Below are positions 14,326-40,454 of a stretch of 64,000 nt of DNA, piece by piece. The DNA is from an uncultured Bacilli bacterium (lineage in GTDB: Bacteria > Bacillota_I > Bacilli_A > RF39 > UBA660): the NCBI GenBank assembly GCA_934168005.1, contig CAKPMN010000002.1:13876-77875 (forward strand), read 5' to 3'. A program made the translations under genes and the position numbers. The notes beneath the pieces were generated by a model. That model did no database searches, was not told the origin of the DNA, and was given only the letters and a program-made list of their open reading frames with translations. Positions within the stretch are counted from its first letter, which is position 1; each line of letters begins with the position of its first letter.

Positions 14326-16137
14326 ATGAAAAATATAAGAAATATTGCTATTATCGCGCATGTTGACCACGGTAAAACAACAATAGTAGACCAATTGCTA
14401 AAACAATCAGGAACATTTAGAGAAAATGAAGAAACAGAAGTAAGAATGATGGATTCTAATGATATTGAAAGAGAAAGAGGAATAACAATTCTTGCTAAAA
14501 CAACAGCTATCAATTATAAAGACTACAGAATAAATATCCTAGATACACCAGGCCATGCTGATTTTGGTGGAGAAGTAGAACGTATAATGAACATGGTAGA
14601 TGGAGTTTTATTAGTCGTTGATGCTTATGAAGGCGCTATGCCACAAACAAGATTTGTACTTAAAAAAGCATTAGAAGCAGGAGTAACTCCAATATTAGTT
14701 GTAAATAAAATTGATAAAGATACAGCAAGACCAAAAGAAGTAGTAGACGAAGTAATAGATTTGTTTATAGAGTTAGGAGCTGACCTAGAACAATTAGATT
14801 TCCCAGTTATTTACATGTCAGCAATAAACGGAACATCTTCATTAGATCCAGATGTATCAACACAAAAAGAAACTATGGATCCAGTATTTGATATGATTAT
14901 CGATACTATACCAGCACCAAAAGTAGATATAGAAGGTTCATTACAATTTCAACCAGCACTACTAGATTATAATGACTTTGTTGGAAGAATAGGTATTGGT
15001 GTTGTTAAAAGAGGAAAAATGAAAGTTAATGAACTAGTTTCTTGTGTTAGAGTAGACGGTTCTATAAAACAATTTAGAATTCAAAAAATGTTTGGTTTCT
15101 TAGGATTAAAGAGAATAGAAATAAATGAAGCTGAAGCAGGAGATATAGTTGCAATAGCAGGTTTACCAGATATTTGTGTTGGAGAAACTGTATGCGAAGT
15201 TGGAAAAGAAGAGGCATTACCTTTACTACGTATAGATGAGCCAACATTACAAATGACATTTGGAGTAAATACTTCACCTTTTGTAGGAAAAGAAGGAAAA
15301 ATAATAACAGCTAGAAAAATTGAAGAAAGACTTCTAAAAGAAACAGAAAAAGACGTTTCTTTAAGAGTTGAACCAAATGATAATGAATCATTTATAGTAT
15401 CAGGTAGAGGAGAACTTCACTTATCAATATTAATTGAAAATATGAGAAGAGAAGGTTTTGAATTACAAGTATCAAAACCAGCAATAATCAAAAAAGAAAT
15501 AAATGGAGTTGTATGTGAACCATTTGAAGATGTTCAAATAGATGTTCCAGAAGAATATGTGGGATCTGTAATAGAGGCACTAGGTAACCGTGAAGGAACA
15601 ATGGAAAACATGACTAATCATGAAAATCAAGTTAGATTGATTTACACAATTCCATCAAGAGGATTAATTGGATTTACTACAGAATTTATGACTTTAACAA
15701 AAGGATACGGTATTTTAAACCATACATTTAAGGAATATAGAAAAATGGCTGGGGCAACAGTTGGAGAAAGAAAACTTGGAGTTTTAGTTTCAATGGAAAA
15801 CGGAAAAGCTACAGCTTATGCTTTAGGTCAATTAGAAGATCGTGGAATTATGTTTATAGAGCCAACAGCTGATGTTTATGAAGGAATGATAGTTGGTGAA
15901 CATTCACATGAAAATGATTTAGCTGTAAATGTTGTTAAAGGTAAAAATTTAACAAATACAAGAAGCTCAAGTAAAGATCATACAGTAGTTTTAAAAAGAC
16001 CAAGACAAATGAGCTTGGAATATTGCTTAGATTATATTAATAGTGATGAATTAGTAGAAGTTACACCATTAAGTTTCAGATTACGTAAAAGAATATTAAA
16101 TACACAAGAAAGAAAGAAATTTGATAGTAAAAAATAA
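14326..16137 (+). CDS. typA: Translational GTPase TypA/BipA
   Basis: AIIAHVDHGKTT, DTPGHADFGGEVER, NKIDK. EF-G-like domain order. About 600 aa. Confidence 0.9.
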   Translation: MKNIRNIAIIAHVDHGKTTIVDQLLKQSGTFRENEETEVRMMDSNDIERERGITILAKTTAINYKDYRINILDTPGHADFGGEVERIMNMVDGVLLVVDAYEGAMPQTRFVLKKALEAGVTPILVVNKIDKDTARPKEVVDEVIDLFIELGADLEQLDFPVIYMSAINGTSSLDPDVSTQKETMDPVFDMIIDTIPAPKVDIEGSLQFQPALLDYNDFVGRIGIGVVKRGKMKVNELVSCVRVDGSIKQFRIQKMFGFLGLKRIEINEAEAGDIVAIAGLPDICVGETVCEVGKEEALPLLRIDEPTLQMTFGVNTSPFVGKEGKIITARKIEERLLKETEKDVSLRVEPNDNESFIVSGRGELHLSILIENMRREGFELQVSKPAIIKKEINGVVCEPFEDVQIDVPEEYVGSVIEALGNREGTMENMTNHENQVRLIYTIPSRGLIGFTTEFMTLTKGYGILNHTFKEYRKMAGATVGERKLGVLVSMENGKATAYALGQLEDRGIMFIEPTADVYEGMIVGEHSHENDLAVNVVKGKNLTNTRSSSKDHTVVLKRPRQMSLEYCLDYINSDELVEVTPLSFRLRKRILNTQERKKFDSKK

Positions 16138-16157
16138 AATATCTCATATGAGATATT

Positions 16158-16379
16158 TTATTTTTCGAAGAATTTACTTATTTCAACATTTAAAGAATCG
16201 GCAATCTTCTCTAATGTGTCAATTGATATAGATTGATAAGTAGTAGACTCTAATTTTGCTATAAAACTATCACTTAAAAAGTTTATTTCAGCAAGTTCTC
16301 TTTGAGTAATTCCTTTTTGTTTTCGATATTTTTTAATATTTTGACCAATAATATTGTAAATATTAATTTTTTGTTCCAT
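16158..16379 (-). CDS. XRE-family helix-turn-helix transcriptional regulator
   Basis: HTH_3 pattern KYRKQKGITQRELAEINFLSDSFIAKLE. Confidence 0.75.
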   Translation of the reverse strand: MEQKINIYNIIGQNIKKYRKQKGITQRELAEINFLSDSFIAKLESTTYQSISIDTLEKIADSLNVEISKFFEK

Positions 16380-16421
16380 ACTACCACCAATTTAATTTTC
16401 TCATGTTCTCAAAAATATAAT

Positions 16422-16440
16422 TATAGACAATTAGTCTATA
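16422..16440. promoter_or_regulatory. 19-bp palindrome TATAGAC-AATTA-GTCTATA in the XRE / ABC-F divergent intergenic region; candidate operator
   Basis: Perfect 7-bp inverted repeat arms between divergently transcribed regulator and ABC-F genes. Confidence 0.35.
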
Positions 16441-16500
16441 TATAGTATGACAAAATAAATAAAATCAATACATTTATGATATAATAAAGAAGGTGTTTTT

Positions 16501-26999: not shown

Positions 27000-27377
27000 A
27001 TGATGAATAAAAAGGGTTATACTCTAATTGAATTGTTAGCAGTATTATCAGTAATGGCTATCATTCTTTTAATTGCTATTCCTTCTATAACTAAACAACT
27101 GTCAGATATAGAAGAAAATAAGTATACACAGTTTAAACAAAATGTTTATCTAGCTGCAGAATCATATATAAACGCATATCCAACAAATTATGAAGTGTTA
27201 AAAATGGATGGTGGTACAGCTTGTATAAATATAGCAAGTCTAATAGAAGATGGATGGATAAAAAGTTCATTTTCAAATCCAAAAACAAATAAAGCTATAT
27301 CTTTAAAAAGCTCAGTAAAGGTTACAAATAATTCCGGAGAATATATTTATAGATATTATCCAGATAAATTATGTTAA
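27000..27377 (+). CDS. Type IV pilin / pseudopilin-like protein (prepilin N-terminal methylation domain)
   Basis: MMNKKG|YTLIELLAVLSVMAIILLIAIP class-III signal with Gly at -1 and Glu at +5. Confidence 0.7.
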   Translation: MMNKKGYTLIELLAVLSVMAIILLIAIPSITKQLSDIEENKYTQFKQNVYLAAESYINAYPTNYEVLKMDGGTACINIASLIEDGWIKSSFSNPKTNKAISLKSSVKVTNNSGEYIYRYYPDKLC

Positions 27378-32396: not shown

Positions 32397-33305
32397 CTAC
32401 ATCTTAATAGAGTTAATAGCTTCTTTAATTAAATCAATAGAATTTTGTAATCTTCTTTCTTCATCTTTATTTAAATTGACATAAATTTTATGAGATACAC
32501 CATTTTTATTTATAACAGAAGGAAGACTAACATAGACATCATTATCTTTATCATAAGTAGAAACAGTTAAAATAGTATTTTCGTCATTTAAAATAGCGTT
32601 AGTAATTCTAACTAGACACATACCAATACCATAATAAGTTGCGCCTTTTTTATTTATTATTTCATAAGCAGCGTTTCTAACATCATTTTCTAAAGAATTA
32701 AGTTCATCATCATTTAGAAACATACTTATATTTTGAAGTCCTATATTAGCATTACTCCAAGGAATAAATTCAGAGTCTCCGTGTTCTCCCATAACATATG
32801 CATGAACATTTTTAGGGTTGATTTTTAATTTATCACCAATCATAAAGCGTAATCTAGCAGTATCTAGACTAGTACCACTACCAATAACTCTACTAGAATC
32901 AATATTAGCATATTTCCATGTAATGTAAGTCATAACATCAAGAGGGTTGGTGGCAATTAAAAATACACCTTTAAATCCATTAGCCATAACATTATCAATA
33001 ATACCTTTGAAAATAGCACTATTTTTATTAATTAAATCCATTCTAGTTTCACCAGGTTTTTGATTAGCACCTGCTGCAATACAAACCAAAGATGCGTCTT
33101 TACAATCTTCATAAGTTCCACTTTTAATTTTCATTTTATTAGGACCGACAGCTAAGCAATGATTTAAATCCATTACTTCACCTTCAACTCTATCCATATT
33201 TAGATCAATAAGTGCAAGTTCATTTACACTATTTTTTTGGTTAAGCAAAGCATAAGCATAACTCATACCAACATTACCGCAACCGATAATAACTACTTTA
33301 TTCAT
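32397..33305 (-). CDS. ldh: L-lactate dehydrogenase
   Basis: KVVIIGCGNVGMSYAYAL, catalytic H in VMGEHGDSE, IAAGANQKPGETR. Confidence 0.9.
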   Translation of the reverse strand: MNKVVIIGCGNVGMSYAYALLNQKNSVNELALIDLNMDRVEGEVMDLNHCLAVGPNKMKIKSGTYEDCKDASLVCIAAGANQKPGETRMDLINKNSAIFKGIIDNVMANGFKGVFLIATNPLDVMTYITWKYANIDSSRVIGSGTSLDTARLRFMIGDKLKINPKNVHAYVMGEHGDSEFIPWSNANIGLQNISMFLNDDELNSLENDVRNAAYEIINKKGATYYGIGMCLVRITNAILNDENTILTVSTYDKDNDVYVSLPSVINKNGVSHKIYVNLNKDEERRLQNSIDLIKEAINSIKM

Positions 33306-33366
33306 ATAATCACCTAATAATATTATAACTATTTTTTATTTCTTTTTTTACAAAATATACAAAACT

Positions 33367-33609
33367 TTACATTTTTTCTTTTTTACAAGCTGCATATGGT
33401 TTCTTTTCGTCGGTACGACATATCAAATAATCAACAGATGTGTGATAATAGTCAGCAAGCTTACATAAAATTTCAATAGGAATACCTCGTTTTCCAATTT
33501 CATAATATGAGTAAGTAACTTGTGAAATATATAAAATTTCACTTATTTTTTTTTGACTTAAATCATTATCTTCCCTTAAATCTTTCAATCTTAATCTCAT
33601 AAAAATCAC
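33367..33609 (-). CDS. Small XRE-family HTH transcriptional regulator with Cys-containing C-terminal tail
   Basis: LRLKDLREDNDLSQKKISEILYISQVTYSYYEIGKRGIPIE HTH_3 pattern. Divergent from the Gly-rich gene. Confidence 0.7.
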   Translation of the reverse strand: MIFMRLRLKDLREDNDLSQKKISEILYISQVTYSYYEIGKRGIPIEILCKLADYYHTSVDYLICRTDEKKPYAACKKEKM

Positions 33610-33627
33610 CTGTTATTAATTTTAATT

Positions 33628-33698
33628 AAAACAATATGTTTTATTGACTTTTAAAACAGAGTGTTTTATAATTGAATTAAATTAAAACAATACGTTTT
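33628..33698. promoter_or_regulatory. Array of three 15-bp palindromes AAAACA-N3-TGTTTT (33628-33642, 33653-33667, 33684-33698); candidate operator sites
   Basis: Perfect 6-bp inverted arms three times within 71 bp between the divergent XRE regulator and the Gly-rich gene. Sites 1 and 3 share extended flanks AATTAAAACAATAYGTTTTA. Confidence 0.5.
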
Positions 33699-33856
33699 AA
33701 TAATAGGGACAATTAATACATTATTATGAGAGAAGGATATGATATGAAAAATGTTAGCAATAACGTTGTTTTTCGTTAAGCCAACAGTGCAATATCTAAT
33801 TGCACTGTTTTTGTCATATTCTCACTTAACTAATAATTAGCTGAGGGAGGAATTAT

Positions 33857-36800
33857 ATGAAAAAGGGTAAAAAAGGATTTGTAGTAAGTGCGGTATTGTA
33901 CCCATTACTAGTATTGTTTCTAGCGATAATCATGGGATTACTTTCCATGACAGATACAAGAAAAAGAATATTAGATAAAATGAAGTTAGAAATAACAGAT
34001 AATATATTTGATGATGCAGCATGCTCATGCGATACAATACTAGCAAAATTAAACTATATTATCGCAAATGGAACTGGAGGATCTGGTGGAGACACAGGAT
34101 CATATGCATATAACAAATTAACACTAAATGTAAAAACATATGAAGCATATAGTGACTTTCCGGTAGTAGGAAACATAATAGGAGATATCGCAGTATTGTC
34201 AACAACCCCAATAAAAAACTATTATGTATCAACAAGTGTACCAAAAAGTCCACAAGAAGGAACAGTATGGATAGTACAAGATAATACAAGTAATTATTAT
34301 GTAACATCAGATTGGAATAGGATTGGTATAAGTTATGTAATGCAGTATGAGAATAGTAAATGGGTATTAAAAAAATCATATGTTTATAACGGTGAATCAT
34401 GGACAATGTTATACTATGTTAATTTAAAGAATGGATATGTAGATTTAACAAAATCAGATATAAATGCTGAGATAACAAAAACATATGACTATACAGGAGA
34501 ATACCAAACATTTAAAGCAGTATTTTCAGGATACTACAAGATAGAGTTATGGGGAGCTCAAGGTGGAAGCTATTCATCTAGTGTAGTTGGTGGATTAGGA
34601 TCATATACGTCTGGAGAAATATACTTAGATGCTGGTGAAATTTTATATGTATATATAGGTGGACAAGGAAAAAATCCATCAGGACTAGGTCCTGATTATA
34701 CAGGAGGAACCGGTGGCTGGAATGGTGGCGGTGACGGAATAAGAAATGCTGGTAACAATGCAAACAAAGCAGCAGAAGGTGGCGGTGGAGCAACAGATAT
34801 AAGACTTATTGGAACATCAGATAAGAAAAATTGGGATGAGTTTGATTCGTTAAAAACTAGAATTATGGTTGCGGCAGGAGGCTCAGGATCAGCATATTAT
34901 GTAGATGCAGCAACAAATGGAACAGCCGGAGGCGGATTAAATGGATACGAAGGAATGTGTGATGGAGGTGCATGTTCAACAACACTTGAATCAAAATATG
35001 GTGGAATAGGTGCAACACAAACATTAGCTGGGTATAGTCCATATTCAAAGATATCAACAATGGGTGGCTTTGGATATGCTGGTAGTGGTGCAAAATCAAA
35101 TTATGATGCTACTGGTGGAGGCGGTGGTTACTACGGAGGCGGAGGAGCTTTTGCCGGTGGTAATGGTAGAACAATCGGAGGATCAGGCTCAAGTTATATT
35201 TCAGGATTTAATGGTTGTAATTCTATAAAAGAAGAAAGCAGTGCAGATAATATAATACATACAGGAAGTGCATATCACTATAGTGGCAAATATTTTTTAA
35301 ATTCTATAATGGTTGACGGAAAAGGAAGTTCATGGGGAGAAGCATATGCAACAGCAACCAAAAATCAACCAACTTATGATGGTAAGTCAACTCAAATAGG
35401 AAATAGTGGAAATGGCTATGCAAAAATTACACTAGAGACAGTTGAGGTAATATCTAAATCTGATATCGAGAAAAAACAGACAGAAGTAGAAAATAAATGG
35501 ATATACAATTATTCAGGAACTTATCAAATATTTACAGCTCCAACAAGTGGATACTATAAAGCTGAATTGTGGGGAGCCCAAGGAGGAAGCTATTCTTCTA
35601 GTGTGATAGGAGGATATGGTTCATATACAACAGGTGATATATATCTAAATAAAAACGAAAAATTGTATATATATGTAGGCGGACAAGGAACAAATCCGCT
35701 AGGTCTAGGTACTGACTATTCCGGAGGAACCGGAGGTTGGAATGGTGGTGGAGATGGACTTAGAAATTCAGGCAACACTGCAAACAAAGCAGCAGAAGGT
35801 GGCGGTGGAGCAACAGATATAAGACTTGTATCTACATCAAGTCTAGGTAATTGGCTTGATTTTGAAAGTTTGAAATCACGAATCATGGTTGCAGCTGGAG
35901 GCTCTGGTTCAGCATATTATGCAGATGCAGCAACAAATGGATCTGCCGGAGGTGGAATAAATGGATATGATGGAATGTGTGATGGTGGAGCTTGTTCGGC
36001 ATCATCCGAATTAAATTACGGTGGAATAGGTGCTACACAAGCCCTAGCAGGATATAGTCCAGTGTCAAAAACTAGTACAATAGGAGGATTTGGATACGCC
36101 GGAAGTGGAACTCCATCAAATTATGACGCTACTGGCGGAGGCGGTGGTTACTATGGAGGTGGCGGAGCATTTGCTGGAGGAAATGGTAGAACTGTTGGTA
36201 GTACAGGTTCAAGTTATATATCAGGATTTAATGGCTGCAATTCAATAGCAGAAGAGAGTACATCTACAAATATTTTACACACAGGGAGTGCATATCACTA
36301 TAATGGATACTATTTTAAATCTGGCGTTATGATAGATGGAAAAGGTCAATCTTGGAACGAGGCTTATGCAAAAACATCACCATTACAACCAAATTATGAC
36401 AATTCTGGTTCTATGACAGGAAATAGTGGACATGGATATGCTAAAATAACTAAAATTTCGACAGAAGAAAAATCTTCAGATGAAATTAGTGGCTATGAAG
36501 AAAAAAATAATAGTATATATGTATATAACTATTCAAGTACATATCAGACTTTCATAGCCAGTAAATCAGGATATTATAAGATAGAACTATGGGGAGCTCA
36601 AGGTGGAAATTATAATACGAATGTAATTGGTGGAAAAGGTGCATATACATATGGAAAAATTTACTTGGCAAAAGGTCAAAAACTATACGTATATGTAGGA
36701 GGTCAAGGAGAAAATCCAAGAGGTTTAGGAACAAATTATTCCGGAGGAAGCGGTGGCTGGAATGGCGGTGGAGATGGTATGAGAAATTCAGGAAACTCAA

Positions 36801-38506
36801 ACAATAAATTTGCCGGAGGCGGAGGTGGCGCTACGGATATACGTTTGGAAGTAACGCCAAGTTTAAGCAGTTGGTCAGATTTTAATAGTATAAAATCAAG
36901 AATTATGACTGCATCAGGTGGATCCGGAGCGGCTTATTATGCAGAAGCAGCAACAAATGGAACAGCCGGTGGCGGATTAACTGGGTATGAAGGAATGTGT
37001 GACGGTGGATCATGTACATATTCAAGCGATCTTAGATATAGTGGTCTTGGCGCAACACAAACATTAGCTGGTTATAGTCAAGTTTCACAAACCGCGACAA
37101 ATGGCGGCTTTGGTTATGGGGGAAGTGGTTCCCAATCAAACTACGATGCTACCGGAGGTGGTAGTGGTTACTATGGAGGCGGAGGAGCATTTTCTGGTAG
37201 TAATGGTAGAACAACCGGAGGATCTGGTTCAAGTTATATTTCAGGATTTACAGGATGTAATTCTATAGCAGGCGAATCAACTGCATCAAACCTTTTACAT
37301 ACAGGAAGTGCATATCACTATAGTGGATATTATTTTACTGATGCTATTATGATAGACGGAAAAGGTTATAAGTGGCAATCAGGAAAAGCATTATCTGCTA
37401 TTAACCAGCCAACATACGATGGAACTAGTACAATGGTTGGAAATAGTGGAAATGGATATGCTAGAATAGAATTTATCGAGGCTGCTAATGTTTCAGAAGA
37501 AACATTAAATAATGATAAATTGAATGCAGAAAAAAATTGGAATTTTACTTATTCAAAAAGTTACCAAGAATTTACAGTTCCAAAAACAGGAACATATAAA
37601 ATAGAACTATGGGGAGCCCAAGGAGGAAGTTATACAACATCAGTTATAGGTGGATTAGGATCATACACATCAGGTCAAATTTCTCTTACTAAGGGAACAA
37701 AATTATATGTATATGTTGGAAGTCAAGGAACAAATCCATTAGGTTTAGGTGATACTTATTCTGGAGGAACCGGTGGCTGGAATGGCGGAGGCGATGGTCT
37801 AAGAAATACAAATACAAGCAATGACAAAGCAGCAAATGGCGGAGGTGGTGCAACTGATGTTAGAACGATAAAGACATCATCCCTTTCAACATGGAATACA
37901 AGAAATTCTATAATTTCGAGAATTATGGTCGCAGCCGGAGGATCTGGCTCTGCATATTATGCAGATGCAGCAACAAATGGCTCTGCCGGAGGTGGATTAA
38001 AAGGGTACAATGGATATTGTGATGCAACAGAATGTACTACATCTGGTGGAAGTGGAGGAACACAAATTGCTGCAGGTTCAGCATCTTACAATGCAACAGC
38101 TACATCATTAACAAAAGGAGATTTTGGCTATGGAGGAAATGGTGCAAAATCTAATTACAATGCAACCGGAGGCGGAAGTGGTTGGTATGGTGGAGGTGGA
38201 GCATACTCAACTGGAAATGGTAGAACAACTGGAGGATCTGGATCAAGTTATATTTCAGGATTTGCAGGATGTATAGGTGTAAATTCATCAGGTAATCCAC
38301 TCGTAACAAAGTATTCAAAATTAGAAGATTCAATTTCAAATACAGGATATAAGTTTACAAATTCCATAATGATAGATGGAAAAGGATATTCATGGAATCA
38401 GACATCTGCAGTATCTGTCGTTAAACAACCAACTCCGGATGGTACATCAACTCAAACAGGTCAAAGTGGAAACGGTTATGCCAAGATAACATACCTAGGA
38501 GCATAA
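33857..38506 (+). CDS. Membrane-anchored giant glycine-rich repeat protein (1549 aa): N-terminal TM/signal anchor, about 200-aa unique region, then four 340-aa Gly-rich repeats
   Basis: Single uninterrupted ORF with AGGGAGG RBS. Each repeat carries YYKIELWGAQGG, GGTGGWNGGGDG, AAEGGGGATDIRL, RIMVAAGGSGSAYY, CDGGACS, ATGGGGGYYGGGGAF, GNSGNGYAKIT. Confidence 0.7.
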   Translation: MKKGKKGFVVSAVLYPLLVLFLAIIMGLLSMTDTRKRILDKMKLEITDNIFDDAACSCDTILAKLNYIIANGTGGSGGDTGSYAYNKLTLNVKTYEAYSDFPVVGNIIGDIAVLSTTPIKNYYVSTSVPKSPQEGTVWIVQDNTSNYYVTSDWNRIGISYVMQYENSKWVLKKSYVYNGESWTMLYYVNLKNGYVDLTKSDINAEITKTYDYTGEYQTFKAVFSGYYKIELWGAQGGSYSSSVVGGLGSYTSGEIYLDAGEILYVYIGGQGKNPSGLGPDYTGGTGGWNGGGDGIRNAGNNANKAAEGGGGATDIRLIGTSDKKNWDEFDSLKTRIMVAAGGSGSAYYVDAATNGTAGGGLNGYEGMCDGGACSTTLESKYGGIGATQTLAGYSPYSKISTMGGFGYAGSGAKSNYDATGGGGGYYGGGGAFAGGNGRTIGGSGSSYISGFNGCNSIKEESSADNIIHTGSAYHYSGKYFLNSIMVDGKGSSWGEAYATATKNQPTYDGKSTQIGNSGNGYAKITLETVEVISKSDIEKKQTEVENKWIYNYSGTYQIFTAPTSGYYKAELWGAQGGSYSSSVIGGYGSYTTGDIYLNKNEKLYIYVGGQGTNPLGLGTDYSGGTGGWNGGGDGLRNSGNTANKAAEGGGGATDIRLVSTSSLGNWLDFESLKSRIMVAAGGSGSAYYADAATNGSAGGGINGYDGMCDGGACSASSELNYGGIGATQALAGYSPVSKTSTIGGFGYAGSGTPSNYDATGGGGGYYGGGGAFAGGNGRTVGSTGSSYISGFNGCNSIAEESTSTNILHTGSAYHYNGYYFKSGVMIDGKGQSWNEAYAKTSPLQPNYDNSGSMTGNSGHGYAKITKISTEEKSSDEISGYEEKNNSIYVYNYSSTYQTFIASKSGYYKIELWGAQGGNYNTNVIGGKGAYTYGKIYLAKGQKLYVYVGGQGENPRGLGTNYSGGSGGWNGGGDGMRNSGNSNNKFAGGGGGATDIRLEVTPSLSSWSDFNSIKSRIMTASGGSGAAYYAEAATNGTAGGGLTGYEGMCDGGSCTYSSDLRYSGLGATQTLAGYSQVSQTATNGGFGYGGSGSQSNYDATGGGSGYYGGGGAFSGSNGRTTGGSGSSYISGFTGCNSIAGESTASNLLHTGSAYHYSGYYFTDAIMIDGKGYKWQSGKALSAINQPTYDGTSTMVGNSGNGYARIEFIEAANVSEETLNNDKLNAEKNWNFTYSKSYQEFTVPKTGTYKIELWGAQGGSYTTSVIGGLGSYTSGQISLTKGTKLYVYVGSQGTNPLGLGDTYSGGTGGWNGGGDGLRNTNTSNDKAANGGGGATDVRTIKTSSLSTWNTRNSIISRIMVAAGGSGSAYYADAATNGSAGGGLKGYNGYCDATECTTSGGSGGTQIAAGSASYNATATSLTKGDFGYGGNGAKSNYNATGGGSGWYGGGGAYSTGNGRTTGGSGSSYISGFAGCIGVNSSGNPLVTKYSKLEDSISNTGYKFTNSIMIDGKGYSWNQTSAVSVVKQPTPDGTSTQTGQSGNGYAKITYLGA
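34450..38506 (+). repeat. Four in-frame tandem repeats with exact 1020-bp period inside the Gly-rich gene
   Basis: Identical 47-mer caaacaaagcagcagaaggtggcggtggagcaacagatataagactt at 34761 and 35781. Homologous blocks at 36801 and 37821. tggggagc(t/c)caagg at 34550, 35570, 36590 and 37610. Confidence 0.85.
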
Positions 38507-38510
38507 CAAT

Positions 38511-39107
38511 ATGAAGAATATAAAGAATAAAAAGATAATAAAAACATTACTAGTACTTTTAATAGTATTAGTAATGTTAATACTTATCATAAATATAATA
38601 AGAAAAGAAAATAATAAAAAAATAGAGCTAGGAAGTTCTATATATGAAGAAATACACAATTTATACTTGTATGGAAAAGGTATTGAATATGTATATGATG
38701 AAGCAAATAATAGAAAGTATATAGAAGAAGATACAAAATATTATGAAGTAAAAGAAAAAAGTGTATTTGAAGATATAATAGCGGAAGAATCACGAGAAAA
38801 ATTACTAAAAATATTTAATATAAAAGAAAAGAATAATAAATATTATATAAGTGATTTTGGAAGAGGAATGACAAATACCTATTATGGAACTATATTAAAA
38901 ATAAAAAATAGAAGAAAAAATAAAATAGAATATACTGCAGTCTCTACTCTATGCAGGATAGATAAAATAGTAACATATGGAGAAGGATGTACAAGAGATG
39001 GCTATTATGAAATAGAAAAACCATTTACTATAGTAAAAGAGGATAATAAATGGAAAGTATTAGAATATACATCTGTATTCCAATTTAGTGATCGAGAAAT
39101 AAAATAA
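38511..39107 (+). CDS. Hypothetical membrane-anchored protein, 4 bp downstream of the Gly-rich gene
   Basis: N-terminal TM helix, K/E/Y-rich soluble part, no known motif. Tight linkage suggests co-transcription. Confidence 0.45.
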   Translation: MKNIKNKKIIKTLLVLLIVLVMLILIINIIRKENNKKIELGSSIYEEIHNLYLYGKGIEYVYDEANNRKYIEEDTKYYEVKEKSVFEDIIAEESREKLLKIFNIKEKNNKYYISDFGRGMTNTYYGTILKIKNRRKNKIEYTAVSTLCRIDKIVTYGEGCTRDGYYEIEKPFTIVKEDNKWKVLEYTSVFQFSDREIK

Positions 39108-39157
39108 ATGAATAAAATAAGAAAATCATCTCAATATTAAATAGGAGATGATTTTTT

Positions 39158-39688
39158 ATGAAGAAATTAATGATAATAGCAGTCATACTTTTAATATTTT
39201 ATTTAAGCATGAATAGAGTAAATTCAAAAGAATATAAAATTCCAGATGAAGCAATAAGACTTAGAGTAATTGCATCTTCTAATTCAAATATAGATCAAAA
39301 AGTAAAATTCAAAGTAACAGATACAATGGAAAATGTAATATATGAACTTCTAAAGAACGCTAAAGGAGTAGAAGAGGCAAGAAAAATAATTAACGACAAT
39401 ATGCAATACATTGATGGAAAAGTTTTAAAAACACTACAAGATGAAAAATACCCACTATCTTATGAAATAAAATATGGATTAAATTTTTTTCCGGAAAAAA
39501 AGTATAATGGAGTAACATATGATGAAGGATACTATGAATCACTCGTTGTAACATTAGGAGAAGGAGAAGGCAACAATTGGTGGTGTGTTTTATTTCCTCC
39601 CCTTTGCATGATGGAAGCAGAAGAAACAGAAAAAGATGATGTAGAATATAAATTTCTCATAAAAGAAGTCATTGATAAATATTTGTAA
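39158..39688 (+). CDS. spoIIR: Stage II sporulation protein R (SpoIIR)
   Basis: Signal peptide, IRLRVIASSNSNIDQKVKFKVTD, and C-terminal GEGEGNNWWCVLFPPLC characteristic of SpoIIR. Confidence 0.8.
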   Translation: MKKLMIIAVILLIFYLSMNRVNSKEYKIPDEAIRLRVIASSNSNIDQKVKFKVTDTMENVIYELLKNAKGVEEARKIINDNMQYIDGKVLKTLQDEKYPLSYEIKYGLNFFPEKKYNGVTYDEGYYESLVVTLGEGEGNNWWCVLFPPLCMMEAEETEKDDVEYKFLIKEVIDKYL

Positions 39689-39716
39689 AATAGTATAATA
39701 TCAGAAAGGTGATATT

Positions 39717-40454
39717 ATGCAGAAAGAAAACTTACACATTCATAGTGAATATTCTTGGGATTCTAATCTAAAAATAGAAGATATAGTAAAAAAGGCAAGA
39801 GAATCCTCATTTGGTACAATTGCCATTACAGATCATGTTGAGATGTATGAGAATGTAATAGGATTAATAAATAAGTATTCAATAGAATCTGAGAGATATA
39901 AAAAAATAGAAAGTTTAAAAAAAGATATCGAAATATTACATGGAATAGAACTATCAGAACCTCATTTAAGAACAAGCGATATAAAATTAATAGATGAGCT
40001 TCCATTAGATATAGTTTTAGGTAGTATCCACGATATAGATAAAACTCAAACAGAAGAAGAAAAAATAATAGAAGCTTATAAGAAATATTATTTAAAGGTT
40101 AAAAACTCAGTTTTAGCAGGTAACTTTGATGTTTTAGCTCATCTTGGATATATAGATAGATACTATAACTATCCATATAAAAATCAAGAACTACTAGATG
40201 AAATATTAAATGAAATAATAAGAAAACAAATTGCTCTTGAAATAAATACATCAGGACTTAGAAGAAAAACAACTCCAACAATTCCTAAGATAGATATAAT
40301 AGAAAGATATAAAAAATTAGGTGGAGAAATAGTAACAATAGGATCAGATGCACATAGAGAAGAAGAAATAAACGATAATATAGAAGCTTCCTATGATATA
40401 GCAAAAACTTTAAAATTAAGACCTGTAACATATAAAAATAGAAGAATTAGATAA
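39717..40454 (+). CDS. PHP-family metal-dependent phosphoesterase (histidinol-phosphatase-like)
   Basis: LHIHSEYSWDS N-terminal PHP motif, ITDHVEM, GSIHD, GSDAHRE. Confidence 0.7.
   Translation: MQKENLHIHSEYSWDSNLKIEDIVKKARESSFGTIAITDHVEMYENVIGLINKYSIESERYKKIESLKKDIEILHGIELSEPHLRTSDIKLIDELPLDIVLGSIHDIDKTQTEEEKIIEAYKKYYLKVKNSVLAGNFDVLAHLGYIDRYYNYPYKNQELLDEILNEIIRKQIALEINTSGLRRKTTPTIPKIDIIERYKKLGGEIVTIGSDAHREEEINDNIEASYDIAKTLKLRPVTYKNRRIR

Follow-up and report, generated by a model that had tools for sequence, protein, structure and literature searches.

Putative operators of a small XRE regulator on back-to-back promoters beside a giant glycine-rich gene

What is the role of three closely spaced palindromes between two divergent genes, and do they place both genes under one switch? 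The question arises in a 64-kb stretch of DNA (64,000 nucleotides of contig CAKPMN010000002.1; hereafter, the window), in which AAAACA-N3-TGTTTT-like sites separate the gene of an XRE-family regulator from a giant glycine-rich (Gly-rich) gene read on the opposite strand. The initial annotation took this array for an operator of the adjacent regulator and for a common switch of both genes. Having compared the locus with its relatives, we conclude that the three sites, O1, O2, and O3, are very likely operators for dimers of the adjacent 77-amino-acid (aa) Cro/CI-type (XRE) repressor, set on two back-to-back promoters.

Sites and promoters in the intergenic region

The array and the elements around it, in the order of their coordinates, are as follows.

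33367-33600, minus strand: XRE regulator gene, Cro/CI-type HTH_3, 77 aa, with its ATG at 33600
33619-33624, minus strand: TAAAAT, predicted −10 of the regulator's own promoter
33628-33642: O1, core AAAACAATATGTTTT; 17-mer TAAAACAATATGTTTTA at 33627-33643, a perfect 17-bp palindrome
33644-33649, plus strand: TTGACT, −35 of the divergent promoter (P_div), from a promoter scan; 11 of 12 consensus matches, 17-nt spacer
33653-33667: O2, core AAAACAGAGTGTTTT; 17-mer TAAAACAGAGTGTTTTA at 33652-33668, a perfect 17-bp palindrome
33667-33672, plus strand: TATAAT, −10 of P_div, from the same scan; 24 of 33 family loci have TATAAT, TAAAAT, or TATTAT in this position
33684-33698: O3, core AAAACAATACGTTTT; 17-mer TAAAACAATACGTTTTA at 33683-33699, a palindrome with one mismatch

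The sites read out exactly where the initial annotation had placed them (33628-33642, 33653-33667, and 33684-33698), with the centre-to-centre distances of 25 and 31 bp and the longer flanks common to the outer two (AATTAAAACAATAYGTTTTA, at 33624-33643 and 33680-33699) that it had noted. Its description of three perfect 6+6 inverted repeats holds for O1 and O2 and fails for O3, whose right arm is CGTTTT rather than TGTTTT. Written as TAAAACA-N3-TGTTTTA, the sites carry zero, zero, and one mismatch, respectively; in the shorter form AAAAC-N5-GTTTT, all three are perfect.

Could such sites be expected by chance? The three span 71 bp in an intergenic region of 24% GC, and the window as a whole has a GC content of about 27%. 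AAAAC-N5-GTTTT occurs four times in the window versus 0.18 expected, a count reached in none of 100 shuffles. Moreover, none of 400 first-order Markov simulations of the window placed even two sites less than 100 bp apart, where three are observed. The fourth occurrence, at 15771, lies in a coding region with three mismatches to the 17-mer, and we took it as chance. The looser 6+6 form with at most one mismatch is found three times in the whole window versus 1.43 expected, which is not significant alone; therefore, it is the clustering and the conservation that carry the signal. A search for further sites had been proposed together with the array; run on the 64-kb window, it found no 17-mer with at most one mismatch besides O1 to O3. 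The concern that the motif might simply occur at AT-rich background frequency is thus not borne out in the window, given that the cluster exceeds chance in both the shuffles and the Markov simulations. An Rfam scan of 33200-34100, with E values up to 1, matched no family.

Both promoters are tied closely to the sites. P_div points toward the Gly-rich gene, and its transcription start site is predicted near 33679-33680. O1 abuts the −35 of P_div, ending one base ahead of 33644; O2 occupies the 17-nt spacer, its last bases overlapping the −10; and O3, 31 bp from O2, falls at about +4 to +20 of the predicted transcript. On the other strand, the predicted −10 of the regulator's promoter begins 3 nt (33625-33627) past the 15-bp core of O1, which places O1 in the spacer/−35 zone of that promoter. 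The corresponding −35 position, 17 nt upstream, reads TCAATA (33642-33647, minus strand) and overlaps the −35 of P_div. Another candidate promoter for the regulator, at 33750-33723 (TTTTCA-16-CATAAT), was rejected: its nine of 12 consensus matches arise at chance frequency, and its −10 lies within an 8-nt stretch deleted in L004/L005 (here and below, L-numbers are the locus labels of relatives).

The regulator matches the helix-turn-helix (HTH) family HTH_3 (PF01381) above the cut-off (E = 3.5e-12), with the HTH at residues 8 to 62. It had been annotated as an 80-aa protein encoded at 33367-33609. A start at ATG 33600 is by far the most likely, with a ribosome-binding site (RBS), AGGTGA, 5 nt upstream and in keeping with the N termini of homologues; the GTG at 33609 is an unlikely start because all homologues begin with M[KR]LRLKDL. 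With this start, the intergenic region measures 256 bp instead of the 247 bp first given. The 77 aa hold only the HTH, with no sensor domain and no C-terminal oligomerisation or self-cleavage domain. The closest solved structures are the DNA-binding domain of ImmR of ICEBs1, a Listeria protein, PezA, the 434 repressor, P22 C2, and CylR2. The top PHROG matches are transcriptional regulator and repressor families, and the top NCBIfam model is phage RstR, at 46 bits versus a cut-off of 80, so that membership is not established. A second small HTH gene of the window (16161-16379, minus strand) is a distant match to the regulator profile (E about 1e-5). Upstream of it (16392-16470), a perfect palindrome of its own, TATAGAC-N5-GTCTATA, lies over a TATAAT; by sequence, the gene looks like another self-contained regulator/operator pair.

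Recurrence of the layout and its match to the recognition helix

If the sites belong to the regulator, they should accompany its homologues elsewhere. The protein collection holds 116 close homologues, and species-representative genomes hold at least 578 loci of the regulator family, mostly from uncultured gut Clostridia and Bacilli; the nearest match in the genome collection is only about 70% identical. With up to two mismatches allowed, A[AT]AACA-N3-TGTTTT-like sites have a density of 2.65 per kb within the 250 bp ahead of homologues versus 0.24 per kb in the remainder of the same loci. An unbiased search, in which the sole requirement was a pair of similar upstream 6-N3-6 palindromes with a spacing of 25 bp, returned 33 nonredundant loci with paired palindromes, and a search anchored on the layout found it in 44 of 90 loci. 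The loci that carry it come from genomes of 24 to 59% GC and from a small filamentous phage.

Read in the direction of the regulator, the consensus of these loci runs ATtaT, A-palindrome-T, aaaaGTCAAT, A-palindrome-T, N4, TATAAT. On the opposite strand, TTGAC[TA] stands between the sites in 26 of the 33 loci, followed by 17 nt that hold the distal palindrome, and TATAAT, TAAAAT, or TATTAT overlaps the distal site in 24 of the 33. A TATAAT-like hexamer lies 4 nt past the proximal palindrome in 24 of the 33 loci and 3 nt past it, the spacing of the window, in four more. The pair conserved across the family is thus O1-O2 at 25 bp; O3 is lineage specific.

The sequence of the sites changes from one locus to another in step with the recognition helix of the linked regulator, as the following classes illustrate.

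Helix ISQV[AT]YSYYE: half-site A[AT]AACA
Helix IKQNTYSQYE: half-site ATC[TA]CA
Helix CDQSLYSKYE: half-site AGGACA
Helix xHQTTYSDYE: half-site AAGGGA
Helix MSQTGY..: half-site AACTTA
Helix CSQVCYSRYE: half-site A[AT]ACCA
Helix IPQRTYAYYE: half-site AGAACA

Shared descent apart, half-site identity is 0.93 within helix classes versus 0.54 between them, and none of 2000 permutations of the labels was as extreme. Within the AAAACA class, seven different central triplets occur in 12 loci with the arms fixed. Homologues that are 60 to 80% identical and carry the helix ISQVAYSYYE in other contexts are likewise preceded by A[AT]AACA-N3-TGTTTT sites; two of them come from genomes of 55 to 58% GC (L030 and L031), a background in which an AT-rich site is very unlikely by chance. 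Short of an experiment, this co-variation of helix and half-site is, in our view, the strongest sequence evidence that the linked XRE protein would read the sites.

In the closest relatives from the genome collection (L010, L012, L013, L014, L016, and L019), the genes facing the regulator encode large, variable surface proteins with DUF285/PARCEL repeats, Big_2, fn3, and GH5 domains. A prepilin-like N terminus (KGITLIALVVTI...) is found in L012 to L016 and L019 and not in L010, four of these proteins having subthreshold N_methyl matches. A prepilin peptidase gene lies near the L012 copy.

Closer relatives allow the intergenic region to be followed base by base. Contigs whose regulators are 76 to 97% identical (L001 to L006, L090 to L093, and L095) share the ldh-XRE synteny and the same three sites. 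In a five-way alignment of the lineage, with regulators 76 to 100% identical, hardly anything changes from O1 to a little beyond O3; O2 varies only in its central triplet (GAG or GTA) and O3 only at its Y position. Namely, L004/L005 keep the arms of O2 around GTA instead of GAG, and they have T at the Y position, which makes O3 perfect. The 5′ leader of the regulator and the sequence past the terminator described below are variable in this alignment and contain indels. O1 is conserved in L090, L001, L095, and L004/L005, and each of the five relatives with the Gly-rich gene has O3. Between O3 and the RBS of the leader, a further block, AGGGACAATTAATAC (33704-33718), is invariant in relatives and recognisable as AGGACGATCATTAA in L098.

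Two relatives amount to natural experiments. L094 encodes a regulator 78% identical to that of the window in the same ldh-XRE-spoIIR neighbourhood, without the Gly-rich gene and the 198-aa gene that follows it in the window. In its intergenic region of 120 bp, only one site remains, AAAACATAATGTTTT, in the place of O1; the region has lost O2, O3, and the divergent promoter, and on the strand of the regulator, a canonical TTGACT-17-TAAAAT comes ahead of the site. The Gly-rich locus of L098 has diverged, its N-terminal domain being 71% identical to that of the window. Ahead of this gene stands TTGACA-17-TAAAAT, whose spacer contains a palindrome of another sequence, ATCACAATTTGTGAT, with one more copy, ATCACAATATGTGAT, 33 bp farther downstream; a leader open reading frame (ORF) and a hairpin come next. 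Together, these loci indicate that the promoter with an operator in its spacer and the downstream operator belong to the Gly-rich gene and O1 to the regulator. Scans of metagenomes with a DNA pattern for P_div plus O2 and with the Gly-rich N-terminal domain gave no matches and no additional relatives.

The leader, the flanking genes, and competing explanations

Downstream of O3, the transcript from P_div would pass through a leader before reaching two further genes.

33730-33737, plus strand: RBS of the leader ORF, GAGAAGGA, strong; this RBS block is conserved in all relatives, including L098
33744-33779, plus strand: leader ORF, ATG at 33744 and TAA at 33777-33779, 11 codons here (MKNVSNNVVFR); the ancestral 29-codon frame runs to 33833
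33783-33809, plus strand: intrinsic-terminator-like hairpin with a T run to 33814, 11-bp stem and 5-nt loop (terminator scan, centroid fold)
33857-38506, plus strand: giant Gly-rich gene, preceded by an RBS, 1549 aa, four ALK_LTK_GRD/PF12810 stretches (Pfam E = 1.6e-164)
38511-39107, plus strand: gene of a 198-aa, N-terminally anchored protein of unknown family, 4 nt past the Gly-rich gene

Every relative with the Gly-rich gene has an intact leader ORF, which measures 29 to 30 codons in L090, L001, L095, and L005. These four copies have no indels, several synonymous differences, and a common stop position except for L005, which has one extra codon. In the window, the TAA at 33777-33779 replaces the TAC of its 97% relative (L090), so that the truncated leader is either a natural nonsense allele or a sequencing error. 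The ancestral frame of the leader encloses the hairpin, and both precede the Gly-rich gene; in an alignment of six sequences, 98.5% of its cells are paired, and four of the 11 pairs show compensatory changes. L098 has a 29-codon leader of essentially unrelated sequence behind the same RBS block and an unrelated hairpin with T5 at the equivalent place. Thus, the attenuator-like arrangement of a conserved short ORF with its RBS overlapping a terminator recurs in five lineages, L098 included. By analogy with the proposed and disputed attenuator in the orf12 leader of tet(M), the hairpin may act as a terminator whose formation depends on translation of the leader, and the Gly-rich gene probably has a second layer of control beyond the operators. 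RNAalifold also pairs the RBS/start of the leader, AGGATATGATA (33734-33744), with TGTCATATTCT (33812-33822), just 3′ of the terminator; this 11-bp complement is kept in four lineages with almost no covariation.

The Gly-rich gene is presumed to be the target of P_div. The lineage alignment shows no conserved promoter between the terminator and its start at 33857; hence, the gene seems to depend on read-through from the operator-controlled P_div. It is present in L090, L095, and L005 and absent in L094, and its length varies, from 1549 aa in the window to 1378 aa in L090 (109-4245) and 722 aa in L095 (384-2552). The contigs of L001 to L004, L006, and L093 break off within about 170 to 290 bp ahead of the regulator gene, where the Gly-rich gene starts or slightly within it, as expected of a repetitive gene. 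Its N terminus is hydrophobic and prepilin-like, KKGFVVSAVLYPLLVLF (33857-33950), and a set of 5.8 billion proteins contains only seven homologues of its N-terminal domain. A pilin gene lies at 27000-27377 of the window. The 198-aa gene is probably cotranscribed with the Gly-rich gene: a scan of 38400-39800, which includes the junction of the two, found no terminator. The downstream gene is partially present in L090 and L095, and it is missing together with the Gly-rich gene in L094.

The window otherwise consists of unremarkable chromosomal DNA of a Clostridia-like organism. Its genes run from whiA through rplI, dnaB, a gene with a metallo-beta-lactamase fold, and rlmH to the minus-strand genes ldh and XRE; past the latter come the Gly-rich gene, the 198-aa protein gene, spoIIR, and further housekeeping genes. 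Among the genes flanking the regulator, there are no phage, plasmid, restriction, or toxin genes. L001, L004, L090, and L094 likewise have ldh behind the XRE gene and on the same strand; in the window, ldh occupies 32397-33305, leaving a gap at 33306-33366. We considered operator control of ldh and rejected it: the gene has its own conserved TATAAT about 20 nt ahead of its start, with no operator nearby. At most, read-through into ldh from the regulator's promoter is possible. A weak terminator-like hairpin lies between the two genes in L004 and L095 and not in the window.

How might the locus work? Binding and cooperativity, the transcription starts, the direction of regulation, and the relief of repression are inferences in the following model. 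P_div, strong and near consensus, would drive the Gly-rich gene, and the regulator would have a weak promoter with only a −10. Repressor bound at O2, in the spacer, and at O1, against the −35, would keep RNA polymerase off P_div. A third dimer at O3 would act as a roadblock, as a cooperative partner that stabilises O2, or both; such a partnership is conceivable because 31 bp corresponds to three helical turns. O1, in the spacer/−35 zone of the repressor's promoter, would provide negative autoregulation. Transcripts from P_div would then traverse the leader, with its 29-codon ORF spanning the terminator, before reaching the Gly-rich and 198-aa genes.

Several observations favour operators read by the adjacent regulator, in line with the initial annotation: homologues in unrelated contexts have two 6-N3-6 palindromes 25 bp apart, the half-site tracks the recognition helix, and the arms are invariant in the lineage while the O2 triplet varies. 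The locus combines an HTH_3 domain, 17-bp dyad sites beside the gene and on a core promoter, and a site sequence that follows the helix. The proposal of one switch for both genes is also supported, with the sites lying over the core of P_div and abutting the −10 of the regulator, no conserved promoter nearer the Gly-rich gene, and O1 alone kept where that gene, O2, O3, and P_div have been lost. Some points weigh against this interpretation. The statistic linking helix and half-site ignores the shared descent of regulator and site. The regulator's own promoter has no recognisable −35, and its TAAAAT would leave a leader of only about 10 nt ahead of the RBS. Cooperativity between dimers at O1 and O2 would not be a given, since the 25-bp spacing puts adjacent dimers on different faces of the helix. 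Finally, a leader ORF and a terminator stand between P_div and the Gly-rich gene, which means that the operators alone do not control it; they may govern only initiation, with expression decided mostly downstream.

A different use of the same operators and the same protein would be a concentration-dependent switch in place of simple repression. At a low level, the regulator would occupy O2, shut P_div, and directly or indirectly activate its own promoter; at a high level, it would also bind O1 and repress itself. Since the −35 regions of the two promoters overlap, polymerase engaged at the strong P_div should keep polymerase off the weak promoter, for which only a −10 is recognisable. As precedents, Rco of pLS20 (PMC4207663) and C proteins (PMC6237814) act both as activators and as repressors at divergent promoters that overlap and differ in strength, and the switch would resemble Rco, the controller proteins of restriction-modification (R-M) systems, and lambda CI at PRM. 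Nevertheless, neither O1 nor O2 departs from a perfect palindrome in the window, O2 would be centred at about −49 with respect to the regulator's promoter, where activators do not classically bind, and the idea is purely inferential; we regard it as rather unlikely.

The remaining explanations would take the sites away from the regulator altogether. AT-rich palindromes are common motifs for many regulators, and an unlinked global factor could bind them with the XRE gene as a bystander; yet the sites travel with this gene into unrelated contexts, including the genomes of 55 to 58% GC (L030 and L031), and change with its recognition helix. In addition, the 64-kb window has no further site, and its only other member of the family, the distant HTH gene at 16161-16379, has a different palindrome of its own. 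An unlinked factor is therefore very improbable. The outer sites, O1 and O3, are inverted with respect to each other, match at 19 of 20 bases, and enclose a promoter core, which might instead suggest recombination sites that flip TTGACT-17-TATAAT between the Gly-rich side and the regulator/ldh side, the more so as a large, variable surface protein is typical cargo of phase variation and the leader contains a terminator. However, the promoter has the same orientation in all six related sequences, only 56 bp separate the centres of the two sites, the flanking genes examined include no recombinase gene, and the pair conserved across the family is O1-O2 at 25 bp, with O3 specific to the lineage. 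We rejected this invertible cassette on its uniform orientation and small size, and we give it very little credence, less than the unlinked factor. Least probable, to the point of being negligible, is that the palindromes are chance products of a region with 24% GC or function only as RNA hairpins, even if O3 is part of the transcript and, by prediction, folds into a weak A-U hairpin where the leader begins. The shuffle and Markov statistics, the arms conserved around a variable triplet, the fixed geometry recurring across the family, and the empty Rfam scan all oppose it; furthermore, O1 and O2 lie upstream of both predicted starts and would not be transcribed.

Operators for the adjacent repressor are thus the reading that we retain, and a repressor acting on a divergent promoter is textbook biology, an ordinary type of bacterial switch that the relatives support unusually well. 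The sites, their positions relative to the promoters, their conservation, and the co-variation of half-site and helix come from the sequence and its comparison. More tentatively, the findings may be joined into one picture: a widespread and portable repressor-plus-promoter cassette of Firmicutes and their small phages, its specificity rewritten many times through the helix, would have been recruited here to gate the Gly-rich gene through a translated leader/terminator layer. The fixed scaffold of this cassette would consist of a pair of 17-bp palindromes, spaced by 25 bp, that enclose an invariant GTCAAT (−35), with a −10 to either side. In the leader layer, previously undescribed, translation of the 29-codon ORF across the covarying terminator would decide read-through. 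Locally, the analysis yields a regulatory map (sites, both promoters, leader, and terminator) for a very rare giant Gly-rich gene of unknown function; its value beyond this map lies in the family-wide helix table and the candidate leader attenuator. The table could predict operators for hundreds of unannotated small XRE regulators of gut Clostridia, which form a very common class, and its helix classes, if true, would be a natural set from which orthogonal repressor/operator pairs might be drawn.

Relation to known regulatory systems

The lambda operators OR1 to OR3 form a tripartite array of roughly 17-bp palindromes, with about 24 to 25 bp between neighbours. The locus of the window resembles such lambdoid CI/Cro systems in its small Cro/CI-type HTH protein, which has the 434 repressor and P22 C2 among the nearest solved sequences, and in its tripartite palindromic array on back-to-back promoters, which implies autoregulation. 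It differs in that the divergent gene is a chromosomal surface-protein gene and not a Cro-like antagonist, that the regulator is flanked by whiA, rplI, dnaB, rlmH, ldh, and spoIIR rather than by a prophage, and that its 77 aa leave out a C-terminal oligomerisation/self-cleavage domain. We rejected a temperate-phage immunity switch given the housekeeping neighbours, the Gly-rich divergent gene, and the RstR match below its cut-off.

The repressors of filamentous phages also resemble the regulator: RstR (CTXphi type) is the best NCBIfam match, and the best matches in the phage collection are repressors of inoviruses of roughly 5 kb, 52 to 58% identical to the regulator. One of these loci, L099, is bajarodino virus 37 (PQ006158.1), an inovirus of about 5.4 kb whose "repressor protein" is 56% identical. 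At 1380-1460, it has the same layout, namely, a palindrome, AAAAGTCAAT, a second palindrome, and ATTAAAAT, with a third site 30 bp upstream. The shared arrangement suggests that the cassette moves between phages and chromosomes. Unlike the phage, the window has no Rep, Zot, or coat genes beside the regulator, and its half-site sequence is a different one.

Among plasmid and R-M systems, Rco of pLS20 controls a strong outward promoter and its own weak one, which overlap and diverge (PMC4207663). Rco is, however, a tetramer that loops DNA between two distant multisite operators, whereas the present locus has three simple palindromes packed into 71 bp and lacks genes for conjugation. C proteins of R-M systems bind as dimers at C-box sites that overlap their own weak promoter and a strong divergent one, and a downstream site can act as a roadblock (PMC6237814). 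The likeness extends to an XRE protein of roughly 80 aa and two adjacent dimer sites. Nevertheless, no restriction or methylase genes are adjacent, ldh lies downstream of the regulator, and the divergent gene is the Gly-rich one, so we rejected an R-M controller. A type II toxin-antitoxin antitoxin (HigA/MqsA-like) was likewise rejected, given that there is no toxin ORF and that the XRE-ldh synteny is conserved in L001, L004, L090, and L094. A member of RRNPP (PrgX, Rgg, PlcR) was rejected as well, in view of 77 aa with an HTH at residues 8 to 62 and no TPR-like peptide-binding domain.

The leader has its own parallels. pyrBI of Escherichia coli is a transcription attenuator with a leader peptide. 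In tet(M) of Tn916, the leader orf12 has been proposed as an attenuator, although the leader peptide itself has been questioned (bioRxiv 10.1101/2021.03.24.436905). As in tet(M), a short leader ORF here covers an intrinsic terminator upstream of the regulated gene. In contrast to such leader attenuators, there is no evident link to an antibiotic or a nucleotide, and the candidate attenuator follows a repressor-controlled promoter. The prgX/prgQ region of pCF10 consists of a repressor gene, operators on a divergent promoter, a small peptide ORF, a terminator, and large surface-protein genes, and the parts of our locus stand in the same order. PrgX is an RRNPP protein with a peptide-binding domain, whereas the regulator here is an HTH-only protein of 77 aa. 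Overall, judging from its sequence, the system would work like a phage-type immunity operator placed outside a prophage context.

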